DNA from: a virus
Lineage: Duplodnaviria; Heunggongvirae; Uroviricota; Caudoviricetes
DNA: 64,000 bases
Direction: 5' to 3' (one strand)
IMG/VR virus record: IMGVR_UViG_3300028275_000480
Coordinates: 1 to 64,000 of that record
The notes under the pieces are model-generated. The model ran no database searches and was not told the DNA's origin. It was given only the letters and a program-made list of their open reading frames with translations. The position numbers were made by a program, and so were the translations under genes. Shown one piece after another: positions 1,085-15,516 of the stretch (its first letter is position 1; each line of letters begins with the position of its first letter).

Positions 1085-1113
1085 ATTGTATAGCCAAAGT
1101 GCCTGAGTGTCAA
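1085..1113 (-). promoter_or_regulatory. sigma70-like promoter (-35 TTGACA / 17 nt / -10 TACAAT)
   Basis: consensus hexamers with 17-nt spacer upstream of 870..1052. Confidence 0.55.
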
Positions 1114-1334
1114 TCAAAATAACGAAATAACCCTGCGGCACACACGGCTATTCCTGCGAAGTTAACGATCATCTGTGGCTTATTTGCCACACGATACGAC
1201 CACGCAAAATAGCATAGACCTCCCAGTAATCCTAAGAGGATATTCAGCGGATATCGCTCAGGAAAGAAGCTCATCACAATATACATAGAGATCAGAGCGG
1301 CTGTGCCCAGCCATTGTAGGCCATGATTAATCAT
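1110..1334 (-). CDS. small membrane protein
   Basis: start MINHG, with ATG overlapping the TAA of 1327..1575; hydrophobic; the track's N-terminal extension fully overlaps 1327..1575 in another frame. Confidence 0.45.
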   Translation of the reverse strand: MINHGLQWLGTAALISMYIVMSFFPERYPLNILLGLLGGLCYFAWSYRVANKPQMIVNFAGIAVCAAGLFRYFD

Positions 1335-1575
1335 AGTTCTTTTTGTCTCCATAACGCTCGTTGTAGTCGTAGCCTGCCAAGTATTCGGCCACGGATGCAG
1401 CATCGTTGACCGAGACTCGGCGGCCGGAATCGCCTCCCACTCCACCGTAGTGAGGTTGACGTGGACGGCCGTAGTAGGAATCTGCTGAGCCACGATCATA
1501 CAAGCAACCATGGGTTCCACGGATGAACTGCCAACCCTTTAGGGCATTTACAACACGTTGTTTTTCTGTTATCAT
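1327..1575 (-). CDS. hypothetical protein
   Basis: start MITEKQ with perfect AAGGAG RBS; lies downstream of promoter 1599..1627, so the track start at 1620 is upstream of the TSS. Confidence 0.5.
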   Translation of the reverse strand: MITEKQRVVNALKGWQFIRGTHGCLYDRGSADSYYGRPRQPHYGGVGGDSGRRVSVNDAASVAEYLAGYDYNERYGDKKNYD

Positions 1576-1598
1576 TTCACGCTCCTTACTATACCTAT

Positions 1599-1627
1599 AG
1601 TATAGCACCAAAAGGCCCAAAGGTCAA
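1599..1627 (-). promoter_or_regulatory. sigma70-like promoter (-35 TTGACC / 17 / -10 TATACT)
   Basis: motif ggtcaacc plus -10; upstream of 1327..1575. Confidence 0.55.
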
Positions 1628-1644
1628 CCAAAAAGAAAGACCCT

Positions 1645-1884
1645 TTAGCTCTGCGGGTTATTCTTAACAAACTGCCACATCTTAAACGCTTCCCCACGCA
1701 GACCCATTAAGATCCCTTCGTAGTCTGCATAGGAGCAGCAGGCCCAAGTGCTCTGAGGACGATAGATCCAGTCCTCATAGATTCGTTCTGTGTTGTGCTG
1801 CGTGACGATACTCTTGGCTGTACGGGCCAGCTTGTAATACTTTTGCATGTGCCCCGTACGAGCATCGTAGACTACCCATCCCAT
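1645..1884 (-). CDS. hypothetical protein
   Basis: start MGWVV at a TAATG overlap with the stop of 1884..2120. Confidence 0.45.
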   Translation of the reverse strand: MGWVVYDARTGHMQKYYKLARTAKSIVTQHNTERIYEDWIYRPQSTWACCSYADYEGILMGLRGEAFKMWQFVKNNPQS

Positions 1885-2120
1885 TAACAAACCTCTTTGA
1901 ATACTCTGTAACCTCGACCCTGAAGCACACGGATCGCAGCCTGTACTTCTTGATGGTTCTTTTCTTCCCAATCCAACATCTCTTTGGCACCTTTGATAGT
2001 GTCTTCGTCGCAGGTGTTACCTGTAGCAAAGTGAGTGTAGAAGTAGTAGCGGCCTTCGTCACCCTGTACTGCCTGGATAGAGCCAATGTTCTTGTAGATC
2101 TGTGTGTCTTTGCTTTTCAT
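1884..2120 (-). CDS. hypothetical protein
   Basis: start MKSKD 17 nt after the upstream stop; the track's longer start would overlap 2137..2319 by 47 nt. Confidence 0.4.
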   Translation of the reverse strand: MKSKDTQIYKNIGSIQAVQGDEGRYYFYTHFATGNTCDEDTIKGAKEMLDWEEKNHQEVQAAIRVLQGRGYRVFKEVC

Positions 2121-2136
2121 TTTAGGCTTTCTAGAA

Positions 2137-2319
2137 TTAGTTGATCTTTTCGTAGCTTGCTCGGAAGTAGCATTCGCTATCACCCGAGGCGTATTCTAGG
2201 CAGAACTGCTTGGCTTCTTCTTCTGTGTCAAAGAACACCACACCCATGTCCCTTTGACCATAGCCTCTTTCATACTCTGTGCATTGAACTCTGTATAGGC
2301 TTTTGACTTCTACTCTCAT
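2137..2319 (-). CDS. hypothetical protein
   Basis: start MRVEV with AAGGAG RBS; the track start at 2364 lies upstream of promoter 2344..2372. Confidence 0.5.
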   Translation of the reverse strand: MRVEVKSLYRVQCTEYERGYGQRDMGVVFFDTEEEAKQFCLEYASGDSECYFRASYEKIN

Positions 2320-2343
2320 ACACTTCTCCTTCTGTGTAAGTGT

Positions 2344-2372
2344 ATTATATGTCCAAAGTGCCAAAAGGTCAA
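2344..2372 (-). promoter_or_regulatory. sigma70-like promoter (TTGACC / 17 / TATAAT)
   Basis: consensus hexamers with 17-nt spacer. Confidence 0.6.
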
Positions 2373-2400
2373 GAAAAAGCCCTACGGAGTGTAGGGCTTT
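2371..2400 (-). terminator. rho-independent terminator (GC hairpin + T-run on minus strand)
   Basis: aaagccctacggagtgtagggcttt hairpin followed by a U-run on the minus strand; downstream of 2407..2760. Confidence 0.55.
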
Positions 2401-2406
2401 TGTTGT

Positions 2407-2760
2407 TTAAATTGCTTCAAAAGCCTTAAGGGCTTCTTGTGCGCTCTCGTCCAAATAGACAGCGTCCATAGCCCGTTGCTTCTCAGCGGCTACCAACTTG
2501 CGATATGCTTCCAGCTCTGCCTTTTTGGCTTCCATAGCAGGCCACTCCACGTCCGTAGGGTTGAGGTAAGGACCCGTATAGTCCACCTTGTCTGCTTTAA
2601 GGGTAATCTCGCCGGATTTAATGCCCTCAAACACCATGCCCCAAGTAGGCTGTTCTGGACGGCCACTTGCGCCGTAAAGTTCTACTGCTTTGGCCTGCAC
2701 TTTTTCTTGTGCTACTTCGTTAAGACGACGGACAAAATACTCACGTGCTTGTGCTTCCAT
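2407..2760 (-). CDS. hypothetical protein
   Basis: 117-aa ORF with AGGAGCG RBS and promoter 2792..2820. Confidence 0.6.
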   Translation of the reverse strand: MEAQAREYFVRRLNEVAQEKVQAKAVELYGASGRPEQPTWGMVFEGIKSGEITLKADKVDYTGPYLNPTDVEWPAMEAKKAELEAYRKLVAAEKQRAMDAVYLDESAQEALKAFEAI

Positions 2761-2791
2761 GTTTCGCTCCTAAGTTGTTTGTTGAGCTTGT

Positions 2792-2820
2792 ATTATATGC
2801 GATCTAGAGGCTGTTGTCAA
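2792..2820 (-). promoter_or_regulatory. sigma70 consensus promoter (GGTTGACAA / 17 / TATAAT)
   Basis: perfect -35 and -10 hexamers. Confidence 0.65.
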
Positions 2821-2839
2821 CCACTTTTTTGAATAACCC

Positions 2840-14264: not shown

Positions 14265-14297
14265 CCAATTTTGTCTAAGACCCTAGAGGGCCTAGGG

Positions 14298-14426
14298 TTA
14301 TTTGACGTGATCCTCGATTAGCTGCGCGAGTGCAGCAATTGCGTCTTGCTGTTCTTCGTCATCTAAATTTGTGTGCTGCTGTAGCGAGGCTAACGCAGCG
14401 TAGAACTTTTGCTGTAGTGCTGTCAT
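14298..14426 (-). CDS. small hypothetical protein (42 aa)
   Basis: not in the track; AAGGA RBS; promoter 14449..14477. Confidence 0.3.
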   Translation of the reverse strand: MTALQQKFYAALASLQQHTNLDDEEQQDAIAALAQLIEDHVK

Positions 14427-14448
14427 TGCTGTCCTTGTTTAAATGCAT

Positions 14449-14477
14449 ATTGTACACGATCACAGCCGTTTGGACAA
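14449..14477 (-). promoter_or_regulatory. sigma70-like promoter (TTGTCC / 17 / TACAAT)
   Basis: hexamers; overlaps the U-run of the tRNA terminator. Confidence 0.4.
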
Positions 14478-14480
14478 GAA

Positions 14481-14515
14481 AAAACCCTATAGCTGAGTTG
14501 ACTATAGGGTTTCTC
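14481..14515 (-). terminator. rho-independent terminator downstream of tRNA genes
   Basis: aaaccctatag...ctatagggttt hairpin followed by a T-run on the minus strand. Confidence 0.55.
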
Positions 14516-14518
14516 AAG

Positions 14519-14595
14519 TGGTGGGCCCCCCGTGAGTCGAACACGGCACCAACGGATTATGAGTCCGCTGCTCTAACCAACATGAGCTAGAGGCC
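14519..14595 (-). tRNA. tRNA-Met (anticodon CAU; could be a lysidine-type Ile tRNA), CCA encoded
   Basis: cloverleaf folded by hand: 7-bp acceptor stem, D-arm GCTC/GAGC, anticodon loop CTCATAA, T-loop TTCGACT, 77 nt. Confidence 0.85.
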
Positions 14596-14600
14596 CTAAC

Positions 14601-14677
14601 TGGCCACGCATAAGGGATTCGAACCCCTGACCCACAGCTTAGAAGGCTGTTGCTCTATCCAACTGAGCTAATGCGTG
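14601..14677 (-). tRNA. tRNA-Arg (anticodon UCU), CCA encoded
   Basis: cloverleaf: acceptor CACGCAT/ATGCGTG, anticodon loop CTTCTAA, T-loop TTCGAAT, 77 nt. Confidence 0.85.
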
Positions 14678-14683
14678 AATTAA

Positions 14684-14860
14684 TTATTGATTGGGTAAGG
14701 TGTCAGTGTCGGGGTCGCGAGCATCAGGATTCCAGCCAGGTTCCCCGTATTTAGGCACCAGCGCAGCACGTTGACGAGCCTGTGCTAGTGCTAGTTCTTC
14801 TGGAGTCATAGCCACTTCCCCGTCCGCTTCCACCGGTTGAACAATCTTTATCCTAGTCAT
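14684..14860 (-). CDS. small hypothetical protein (58 aa)
   Basis: not in the track; AGGTG RBS; ATGA overlap with 14857..15195. Confidence 0.35.
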   Translation of the reverse strand: MTRIKIVQPVEADGEVAMTPEELALAQARQRAALVPKYGEPGWNPDARDPDTDTLPNQ

Positions 14861-15195
14861 AGTTCACCTCTATTCTTAGCTTCACGTAGATCTTCTTCCA
14901 CATCCTCGGCCATACGCTGCTGCATGTCATGAGTCTTGACCATCTTGTACAAGGGATCAAGTCTACGTATAAAAACATCAGGACTAGCTGCTGCTGCACG
15001 ATCTAGATCCCAACGTGAGGGATAGTGGCGCAGCAGACTTCTTGCTGAATCTCGGATCTTTTTGGGTACTCTGGGAGTTTGTGCAGAATCTAATAGTGAT
15101 TCTAGAAAACGCTGTGTTTGCTCTACAGCGCGATAACGTTCATCAGGTAGGGTCATAGAGTCTCTGCTTTTAGATAATAGTCTTTTCTTTTGCAT
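14857..15195 (-). CDS. hypothetical protein
   Basis: 112-aa ORF starting 30 nt after the stop of the DksA/TraR-like gene. Confidence 0.5.
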   Translation of the reverse strand: MQKKRLLSKSRDSMTLPDERYRAVEQTQRFLESLLDSAQTPRVPKKIRDSARSLLRHYPSRWDLDRAAAASPDVFIRRLDPLYKMVKTHDMQQRMAEDVEEDLREAKNRGEL

Positions 15196-15225
15196 ACATG
15201 TACGTGTGTATAGCAGCGGGGCCTA

Positions 15226-15480
15226 TTAGTATCCAGCTCTACGACGCTCAAATAAGCCTTGGCAGTATACGCAGCGTGTACAACCTGGGACCATTTGCTG
15301 TCTAGCCTGTGGAATAGCTTCACCGCAGTCTTCACATTCCTCTAGACTAGGCTGTGATCTTTGACGAGCCAACTCTGCTTGTACAGAATCTATAGCGTTC
15401 TGATTAATGTGTAGACTATGAATCTGAGCCATTTCGGCTTCTTCTTCATTGTTATATTCAAATACTTCTCTTTGTGTCAT
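15226..15480 (-). CDS. DksA/TraR-family C4 zinc-finger protein
   Basis: CEDCGEAIPQARQQMVPGCTRCVYCQ (CxxC-17-CxxC); start MTQREV lies 7 nt after the -10, so possibly leaderless. Confidence 0.55.
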   Translation of the reverse strand: MTQREVFEYNNEEEAEMAQIHSLHINQNAIDSVQAELARQRSQPSLEECEDCGEAIPQARQQMVPGCTRCVYCQGLFERRRAGY

Positions 15481-15487
15481 ATGCGAT

Positions 15488-15516
15488 ATTATATAGTCAT
15501 TACGTGAGTATGTCAA
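15488..15516 (-). promoter_or_regulatory. sigma70 consensus promoter (TTGACA / 17 / TATAAT)
   Basis: perfect hexamers immediately upstream of the ATG at 15480. Confidence 0.6.

Follow-up and report, generated by a model that had tools for sequence, protein, structure and literature searches.

A conserved array of near-consensus, probably early, sigma70-type promoters in the small-gene block of an uncultured phage lineage

The DNA analyzed here is a 64,000-nt stretch (the window) comprising positions 1 to 64,000 of IMG/VR virus record IMGVR_UViG_3300028275_000480, from a phage of the class Caudoviricetes. Its first 16.5 kb hold about 39 minus-strand genes by a rough gene model, and 19 of these lie directly behind a near-consensus sigma70-type promoter. 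The promoters divide the block into about 20 short transcription units, each with 1-4 genes, and we read this array as host-type and probably early. The first gene of the array encodes a DksA/TraR-type C4 zinc-finger protein, and two tRNA genes lie within it (Table 1). The array also encodes a MoxR ATPase, its DUF2201/VWA partner and an endonuclease-like protein. The remaining genes are mostly ORFans or members of phage-only families without known function, and, taken as a whole, the block is hyperplastic and made up of small accessory genes.

Promoters were sought as TTGACA and TATAAT hexamers with at most two mismatches in total, with spacers of 16-18 nt allowed and with A-11 and T-7 required. 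The scan returned 19 minus-strand TTGAC(A/C)-N17-TAnAnT sites within 1085-15518. A twentieth, weaker array site stands directly after the tRNA terminator hairpin (TTGTCC-N17-TACAAT, 14449-14477), and four further minus-strand sites are found outside the array at 21531, 25320, 28538 and 28656. Together these make up the approximately 24 promoters that a preliminary description of this DNA had counted, and the limits it had set at 1085 and 15516 coincide with a -10 element at the low end and a -35 element at the high end. Its several perfect 12/12 copies of TTGACA-N17-TATAAT number 11 (eight in the array and three outside), where about 0.01 would be expected by chance. All 24 spacers are exactly 17 nt although 16-18 nt were permitted, and neither of the two 18-nt spacers reported earlier was found. 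The extended -35 element GGTTGACA occurs 16 times in the window, each time on the minus strand, compared with 1.84 copies expected and a maximum of seven in 100 dinucleotide-preserving shuffles of the window. Four array sites lack the full element, with TTGACC in three and no GG in two. What had been described as a 9-mer is in fact an 8-mer, as its ninth base is A or C in 11 of the 16 window copies, and A in 32% and G in 42% of 389 related sites (see below). The combined pattern TTGACA-N17-TAWAMT was found 13 times, again exclusively on the minus strand, against 0.06 expected. In the same scan the plus strand of the array yields a single weak 10/12 match, and all matches of at least 11/12 in 1-16.5 kb lie on the gene strand. 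The bias in strand and position on which the preliminary description had staked its reading is thus present.

About one third of the window copies contain a palindrome-like core, GTTGACAAC, as might be expected if the sites were repeated DNA with a non-transcription function (protein-binding, replication or packaging repeats) rather than promoters. We consider this, or an origin as chance look-alikes, extremely unlikely. Thirteen sites stand where about 0.06 were expected, and all keep a constant orientation and spacing relative to the ribosome-binding site and ATG. The hexamers and their spacing are kept while the spacer is free, which points to bipartite recognition by a sigma factor and not to a contiguous binding site. 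As a protein-binding site in its own right, the GTTGACAAC palindrome was rejected, given that the AC completing it is not conserved in the 389 related sites.

Inspection of the promoter sites reveals a module of approximately 70 nt that reads (W-rich)-GG-TTGACA-N17 (often ending GRTGn)-TAtAAT-AnAnAC-A(+1), continued by an A-rich leader of 14-27 nt, (A)AGGAGCG, 3-6 nt and ATG. Across 23 window sites the -35 hexamer is TTGACA in 20 and TTGACC in three, and T-12, A-11, A-9 and T-7 are invariant, with A-11 and T-7 being so partly by construction as selection criteria. The -10 forms named in the preliminary description (TATAAT, TACAAT and TATACT) all occur, as do TAAACT and TACATT, which it had not listed. 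Conservation beyond the hexamers involves G-37 and G-36 (20 of 23 each), a T-rich stretch at -41 to -38, T-18, G-17, R-16, A-6 and A-4, together with Y-1/A+1 exactly 7 nt past the -10 element. An extended -10 (TGn) motif is present at 7 of the 21 best window sites.

A ribosome-binding site and start codon 14-57 nt past the predicted transcription start, opening a reading frame (ORF) of at least 47 codons, follow 18 of the 23 sites; in the array only, 15 of the 19 sites are so followed, most of them within 14-33 nt. The new ATG starts fall inside longer six-frame ORFs that open at TTG or GTG, and about a dozen starts move to internal methionines with ribosome-binding sites, as had been proposed. 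For P3426 (ATG 3391) and P15516 (ATG 15480) the ATG coincides with the predicted start, and these two mRNAs may be leaderless. The ribosome site is strikingly uniform: of 12 GGAGCG copies on the minus strand of the window, ten belong to the array, and nine of those ten are followed by an ATG after 3-5 nt.

Table 1. Predicted promoters, motif copies, repeats and selected genes of the window.
Feature	Position	Strand	Description
P15516	15488..15518	-	GG-TTGACA-N17-TATAAT; first of array; ATG 15480 at ~+1/+2, mRNA may be leaderless
P14477	14449..14479	-	Weaker, TTGTCC-N17-TACAAT; directly after hairpin following tRNAs
P14264	14236..14266	-	TACAAT; AAGGAGCG then ATG 14211
P13631	13603..13633	-	Perfect consensus; AAGGAGCG then ATG 13574
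P13055	13027..13057	-	TACAAT; AAGGAGCG then ATG 12999
P12646	12618..12648	-	TACAAT; AAGGAGCG then ATG 12588
P12146	12118..12148	-	Perfect consensus; TAGGAGCG then ATG 12084; heads 4-gene unit
P10100	10072..10102	-	Perfect consensus, TGn; AAGGAGCG then ATG 10051
P9407	9379..9409	-	TACAAT; MoxR-type ATPase gene (9326..8241); 46-nt leader; kept in 68/70 relatives
P8137	8109..8139	-	Perfect consensus, TGn; strong terminator hairpin 8148-8183 before; heads DUF2201/VWA gene
P6791	6763..6793	-	Perfect consensus; heads four small ORFs
P6050	6022..6052	-	-10 TAAACT, TGn
P5812	5784..5814	-	GG-TTGACC-N17-TATAAT; AAGGAGCG then ATG 5758
P4652	4624..4654	-	-10 TACATT; 50-nt leader to ATG 4567
P4187	4159..4189	-	Perfect consensus; terminator 4205-4232 before
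P3426	3398..3428	-	TACAAT; overlaps 3' end of upstream ORF; ATG 3391 at predicted +1, possibly leaderless
P2820	2792..2822	-	Perfect consensus; TAGGAGCG then ATG 2760
P2372	2344..2374	-	TTGACC-N17-TATAAT, no GG; directly after bidirectional terminator 2375-2401
P1627	1599..1629	-	GG-TTGACC-N17-TATACT, TGn; AAGGAGCG then ATG 1575
P1113	1085..1115	-	GA-TTGACA-N17-TACAAT; TAGGAGCA then ATG 1052
P21531	21503..21533	-	Outlying; perfect consensus; without GG, GRTG or GGAGCG signature
P25320	25292..25322	-	Outlying; perfect consensus; 57-nt leader to lipoprotein-like gene
P28538	28510..28540	-	Outlying; perfect consensus, inside 58-aa ORF; no downstream ribosome-binding site; function least certain
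P28656	28628..28658	-	Outlying; GG-TTGACA-N17-TATACT; immediately after stop of 2OG-Fe(II) oxygenase gene
ATAAATA	37988..37994	+	5 nt before ATG of 1384-aa tail-fibre-like gene
ATAAATA	42942..42948	+	29 nt before ATG 42978
ATAAATA	43789..43795	+	4 nt before ATG 43800
ATAAATA	46566..46572	+	24 nt before isocitrate lyase gene
ATAAATA	51411..51417	+	10 nt before ATG 51428, after terminator-like hairpin
ATAAATA	52201..52207	+	74 nt before ATG 52282
ATAAATA	53021..53027	+	28 nt before ATG 53056
ATAAATA	55564..55570	+	21 nt before tail-spike-like gene
ATAAATA	57566..57572	+	31 nt before nrdA
DksA/TraR-type gene	15226..15480	-	C4 zinc-finger protein, 84 aa; first gene of array; PF01258, 37.2 bits, cutoff 24.9
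tRNA-Met(CAT) and tRNA-Arg(TCT)	14519..14677	-	Within array
GGCCCCGCTGC copies	6821-6830, 15214-15223, 15530-15539, 15766-15775, 15959-15968	-	
Iteron AAGTGTGA, x4	15707-15744, 15801-15818	-	10-nt spacing
Iteron GAATCCACCGT, x3	15577-15623	-	~11-nt spacing

Among 50,697 phage records no near DNA match to the window was found, the tRNAs excepted. The MoxR-type ATPase (9326..8241), when used as a query, recovers more than 598 stretches in IMG/VR, and the identical protein sits in 73 blocks (assembly batches) of the metagenome collection. The phage lineage is therefore abundant and uncultured, with contigs of up to 210-215 kb. In about 40 close relatives (ATPase 81-91% identical, DNA approximately 70-78%) the motif occurs about once per kb, and some 475 kb of their sequence contains 434 strict sites on the gene strand versus five on the other. 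A logo of 389 unique sites from relatives gives G-37 in 81%, G-36 in 83%, G-17 in 71%, R-16 in 87%, T-15 in 70% and G-14 in 57%, followed by A-6 (80%), A-4 (65%), A-2 (72%), C-1 (66%), A+1 (74%) and T+2 (70%), and is uninformative at -50 to -43 and over most of the spacer. The family consensus is GG-TTGACA-N11-GRTGn-TAtAAT-AnAnAC-A, that is to say, a -35/TGn/-10 promoter with no UP element. Of 270 promoter-proximal GGAG sequences in the close relatives, 185 continue with CG, or 69% of modules.

The strongest in-silico evidence comes from the ATPase promoter, which is kept as TTGAC(A/T/G)-N17-TA(T/C)A(A/C)T in 68 of 70 unique upstream regions representing two clades. In relatives whose ATPase is 70-91% identical, 29-63 nt separate its end from the start codon. 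Both hexamers and their spacing are kept while almost no similarity is left in the spacer and flanks, and this footprint is the pattern that a functional bipartite promoter would be predicted to leave. The ATPase leader itself is 45-50 nt long (window 9326-9372, minus strand) and carries an ACTGRGARA block after the start site that is kept in the close clade; the leader in a more distant clade has a small hairpin instead, e.g. ATATTGAAGC...CAATAT. Block and hairpin may be a regulatory element of the 5' untranslated region.

This distant clade (ATPase 70-74% identical, approximately 38% GC; loci L042-L080, plus L037 at 81%) has no dense array and about one strict site per locus, yet the position of the ATPase promoter is kept. 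Its ATPase promoter has neither GG nor GRTG. In the close clade GG is present at about 82% of sites, and three of the four outlying window promoters lack the signature. Because of these two absences, GG/GRTG/AGGAGCG is a clade-specific signature of the early module rather than a requirement of the promoter class, so the phage-specific character that the preliminary description saw in the extended -35 holds at the level of the clade. A search of the phage promoter literature for GGTTGACA returned nothing specific.

The same signature invites a reading in which its non-canonical positions (GG at -37/-36, G-17/R-16 and the CG after GGAG) are marks for a phage-encoded or virion-delivered factor, such as an Alt-like RNA polymerase modifier, a sigma-binding protein or a RegB/RegA-like factor for early-mRNA shut-off, so that unmodified host polymerase by itself would not suffice for full activity or shut-off. 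These positions carry approximately 0.55-1.2 bits each, with G-37/G-36 and CG highest and adjacent positions having almost none, and they are absent from the ATPase promoter of the distant clade and from three of the four outlying promoters. A CG behind GGAG should bring no additional canonical anti-Shine-Dalgarno pairing with the 3' end of 16S rRNA. T4 early promoters likewise have extra consensus positions, and some of these promoters are Alt-responsive (PMC2988021). Nonetheless, no candidate factor was identified in the window, and promoters this near consensus should work unaided. The signature could equally reflect preferences of the host sigma or alpha subunits, or the shared ancestry of a horizontally acquired module of higher GC (GC at third codon positions, GC3, of 0.50 vs 0.30). 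We regard a dedicated phage factor as improbable.

Base composition changes sharply along the window. Positions 1-16000 have a GC content of 46-49% and a GC3 of 0.50, compared with 35-43% and 0.29-0.30 over 18000-64000, and the homologous ATPase region of the distant sister clade has approximately 38% GC. This break and the low GC of the sister region suggest that the early module was acquired as a block, or else that codon selection differs for early genes.

A GC-rich companion motif, (A)n(W)GGCCCCGCTGC, marks the same block. It has five copies on the minus strand of the window, where 1.0 would be expected, and four of the five lie in the non-coding head of the array at 15.2-16.0 kb. In close relatives (L001-L041) there are 96 copies on the gene strand and none on the other, and the motif is absent from the distant clade. 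Copies are mostly intergenic, often 7-51 nt upstream of the -35 element, with 3-5 clustering at the array head. Two roles for GGCCCCGCTGC were considered and rejected: a MotA-box-like -30 element, as no -10-like hexamer stands at a fixed distance, and a conserved hairpin arm, as its complement does not occur on that strand and structure predictions pair it inconsistently. A literature search for the motif gave no match. The approximately 450-bp non-coding head (15530-15980) also contains iteron-like direct repeats with 10-11-bp spacing, and in relatives similar repeat arrays of differing sequence follow the GGCCCCGCTGC copies. This repeat region is a candidate origin or regulatory hub.

Signature, composition and array head could all belong to one horizontally acquired, self-contained "takeover module", in which the non-canonical positions would be marks for factors encoded by the module itself, not for the host, and GGCCCCGCTGC with the iterons may belong to the marks. 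We hold this to be a long shot, on a par with the dedicated factor considered above. If it were true, the marks would first boost and then silence the whole early block, or would mark the origin or entry end, and the TraR-like first product would be one of the factors.

Gene order and content vary among relatives outside a conserved core (window 12588-6875). At locus L004, for example, the homologue of 2760-2407 adjoins the homologue of 14211-13891, each with its own module. Such arrangements recall PeSL elements, which consist of a stem-loop, a near-consensus sigma70 promoter (TTGACA-N17-TATAAT in RB49/phi1), a ribosome-binding site and ATG, and which sit in hyperplastic regions at the breakpoints of indels and exchanges (PMC4122927). 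The array is like the PeSLs of RB49/phi1, PST/T4 and nt-1/KVP40 (Arbiol 2010, PMC2839356; Comeau 2014, PMC4122927) in its repeated unit of promoter, Shine-Dalgarno sequence and ATG, and in the placement of these units between single ORFs or ORFans of a hyperplastic region whose gene content and order differ among relatives. It differs in that stem-loops occur at a minority of sites and breakpoints are not enriched at promoters. PeSL hosts are T4-like myoviruses, a group to which this phage may belong: it has several genes in common with Kyanoviridae, but the window contains no T4 core replication or late-transcription genes and the early proteins are closest to those of PA5oct.

Strong terminator hairpins stand directly before P8137, P4187, P2372 and P14477 only, or about 4 of the 24 sites. 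When the 60 nt before each site were folded, 3-5 outliers emerged and the rest were background, which gives no general upstream stem-loop; terminator-like sites as a class are not enriched either (11 vs 12.9 expected). A weaker hairpin, AACCCTAG...CTAGGGTT(ATT), was seen on the minus strand at 12150-12185, 2825-2860, 14275-14300 and 14480-14512. Three copies precede P12146, P2820 and P14264, and another follows the tRNAs. The stop codon of the preceding ORF falls within the hairpin, two such ORFs ending in ...ETLED and ...ETLAA, and the hairpins may be a family of weak terminators or an element repeated at junctions.

Adjacency was compared over 951 predicted genes in 38 dereplicated loci and 297 gene families. 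The downstream neighbour is kept across 59.6% of junctions with a promoter and 59.7% of those without, which shows no PeSL-style breakpoint enrichment within the limited power of a crude test built on rough gene calls and a strict promoter pattern. The modules could additionally be PeSL-type mobile cassettes, whose roughly 40-70 nt of conserved sequence would provide homology for the excision, insertion or swapping of promoter-plus-ORF units among co-infecting relatives and so generate the shuffled order. This idea is compatible with the host-polymerase reading and draws on the near-perfect promoter, ribosome-binding site and ATG that the module shares with the RB49/phi1 PeSL, on the L004 rearrangement and on the strong or weaker hairpins that precede some of the promoters. 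With neighbour conservation equal at both kinds of junction and folding energies mostly at background, we find it rather unlikely. The array resembles the promoter half of a PeSL, and a PeSL-like role in recombination is not supported.

Plus-strand genes beyond 30 kb are without sigma70-type modules, and many have the motif ATAAATA 15-35 nt before the start. The motif is rare in the window (11 found vs 20 expected). Nine of the 11 copies lie on the plus strand, all within 37988-57572, and for eight of these an ORF start follows within 45 nt. Retrieval around the virion gene 36374-37717 gave 76 related loci with a strand ratio of 286:87 (plus vs other), and 50% of plus-strand copies stand 0-45 nt before an ORF start, compared with 5-17% for non-overlapping permutations. 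Of the permutations of this 7-mer, ATAAATA itself shows the strongest enrichment directly before ORF starts in these relatives. The ATG most often lies 15-35 nt downstream, and the bases flanking the motif show no conservation among 163 unique sites of relatives. Cyanomyoviruses combine a sigma70-like early motif with the late promoter consensus NATAAATA (Clokie, Millard & Mann 2010, PMC2984593). ATAAATA matches this late consensus, and by that resemblance it is most likely a T4/cyanomyovirus-type late (gp55-class) promoter.

The preliminary description had already pointed to a motif of this kind in a plus-strand late block. The motif is real and lies upstream of ORFs, at nine sites rather than four, with three of the four earlier coordinates off by 3-13 nt. 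It stands before tail-fibre-like and tail-spike-like genes but likewise before isocitrate lyase and nrdA, and the block is thus not purely late. One of the two minus-strand copies, at 16672-16678, lies upstream of minus-strand ORFs at 16.2-16.6 kb. These ORFs are beyond the head of the sigma70 array, have no consensus promoter and may belong to the ATAAATA promoter class.

The joint best explanation, to which we assign a probability of roughly 0.85, is that the array consists of host primary-sigma promoters that are probably early, with a link to the TraR-like protein and with a gp55-class motif for late genes. The sigma70-type reading first proposed in the preliminary description is supported, at the level of sequence, by the hexamers, 17-nt spacer, Y-1/A+1, leader, ribosome-binding site and ATG, all conserved in relatives. 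From the anatomy, statistics, strand bias and conservation observed above, we infer dependence on host polymerase and early timing. Host RNA polymerase with its primary (sigma70-type) sigma would read the modules directly, with no phage protein needed. With optimally spaced -35, TGn and -10 elements close to consensus, the modules would out-compete host promoters, so that the genes would most likely be expressed immediately after DNA entry. DksA/TraR proteins bind the secondary channel of RNA polymerase and typically depress promoters with G+C-rich discriminators. By analogy, the 84-amino-acid TraR-like protein is a candidate modulator of host RNA polymerase, and this first product could reprogram the enzyme against promoters of that kind, those of rRNA among them, while the A-rich discriminators of the phage modules would escape such repression.

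Immediate-early, host-polymerase-dependent expression of the block is the likeliest reading on the precedent of T4 (PMC2988021), its early promoters being used by unmodified host polymerase immediately after infection. Those "uber" UP/-35/TGn/-10 promoters also have extra consensus positions of unknown role (Hinton 2010, PMC2988021). The array is like them in its many near-consensus sigma70 sites amid small, mostly non-essential genes and in a consensus that extends beyond the hexamers; TGn, frequent in the related sites, is seen at a third of the best window sites. It differs in having no A/T-rich UP element at -40 to -60, in its own extra bases (GG at -37/-36 and G-17/R-16) and in that no Alt, ModA, MotA or AsiA homologue was seen in the window, with Alt, MotA and AsiA sought through PHROGs. 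The -35 element of the T4/PST pair is TTTACW (PMC4122927), compared with the canonical TTGACA here. Phage T5 is a further point of reference, although no relationship in sequence or gene content was found, the comparison not extending to T5 promoter features themselves. T5 early promoters are very strong, are used by host sigma70 polymerase and are clustered in the early region.

Several observations weigh against this explanation. The match to a host consensus rests on the generality of TTGACA and TATAAT. There is no UP element, with information near zero at -50 to -43 and a weak preference for W at -42 to -38, and P28538, set within a small ORF and with no ribosome-binding site behind it, may have arisen by chance or act as an internal promoter. 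For the late motif, no gp55, gp33 or gp45 homologue appears among approximately 60 window ORFs compared with PHROGs, with about 150 kb of the genome lying outside the window. Two of the genes behind ATAAATA, nrdA and isocitrate lyase, are not classic late genes, and two copies of the motif stand only 4-5 nt before the annotated ATG, where they could be promoters only if the mRNAs were leaderless.

Early-region proteins are closest to those of jumbo phage PA5oct, which was rejected as a model for the array because its ATPase region, by annotation, has no small-gene block (promoters there were not scanned). A virion protein is 53% identical to that of S-RIM32, isocitrate lyase is 58% identical to that of Kyanoviridae phage C48C1, and tail-fibre segments and several 2OG-Fe(II) oxygenases are also held in common with Kyanoviridae. 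The likeness to Kyanoviridae thus covers virion, tail-fibre, isocitrate lyase and 2OG-oxygenase genes as well as an ATAAATA core with an unconserved preceding base 15-35 nt upstream of start codons. The window differs in having no gp55, gp33 or gp45, in the motif's presence before metabolic genes and in its PA5oct-like early proteins.

The isocitrate lyase gene (46597-47871, plus strand) is an auxiliary metabolic gene of the glyoxylate shunt with a strong GGAGGA ribosome site and ATAAATA before it. Its product is approximately 70% identical to Salmonella AceA, and the nearest bacterial enzymes, at 72-79% identity, are mostly from Burkholderiales, which is a weak hint as to the host. Further auxiliary genes lie at 17833-19022, 22168-22791, 28658-29248, 30796-32762 and 60469-60858. 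They encode four 2OG-Fe(II) oxygenase paralogues, a ClpP-like protease, a cysteine dioxygenase, heptose-nucleotide pathway proteins, two sugar epimerases, a NifU-like protein, NrdAB and an ATP-dependent ligase. This set is typical of aquatic T4-like phages, whereas the early proteins are PA5oct-like. Near the left end of the window, at approximately 105-140 on the minus strand, there is a short tandem run of GGTCGGT (ggtcggtcggtggtcggtggtcggtggtg).

That phage early regions carry numerous strong promoters of the host type is textbook biology from T4 and RB49. What appears to be new here is a well-conserved phage early promoter array with a clade-specific sequence signature; the unexplained GGCCCCGCTGC motif and the compositional break are somewhat more interesting than the promoters themselves. 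For an uncultured but abundant clade of large phages from the environment, the analysis provides a predicted transcription map with about 20 units and about a dozen corrected start codons. It also supplies hundreds of natural near-consensus promoter variants, which can be used to test what the bases at -37/-36 and -17/-16 mean to a primary sigma. Lastly, the sister clades offer a natural comparison for the evolution of early-gene control, with a GG/GRTG/AGGAGCG array in a high-GC3 block in one and a matching promoter only at the ATPase, in low-GC DNA, in the other.

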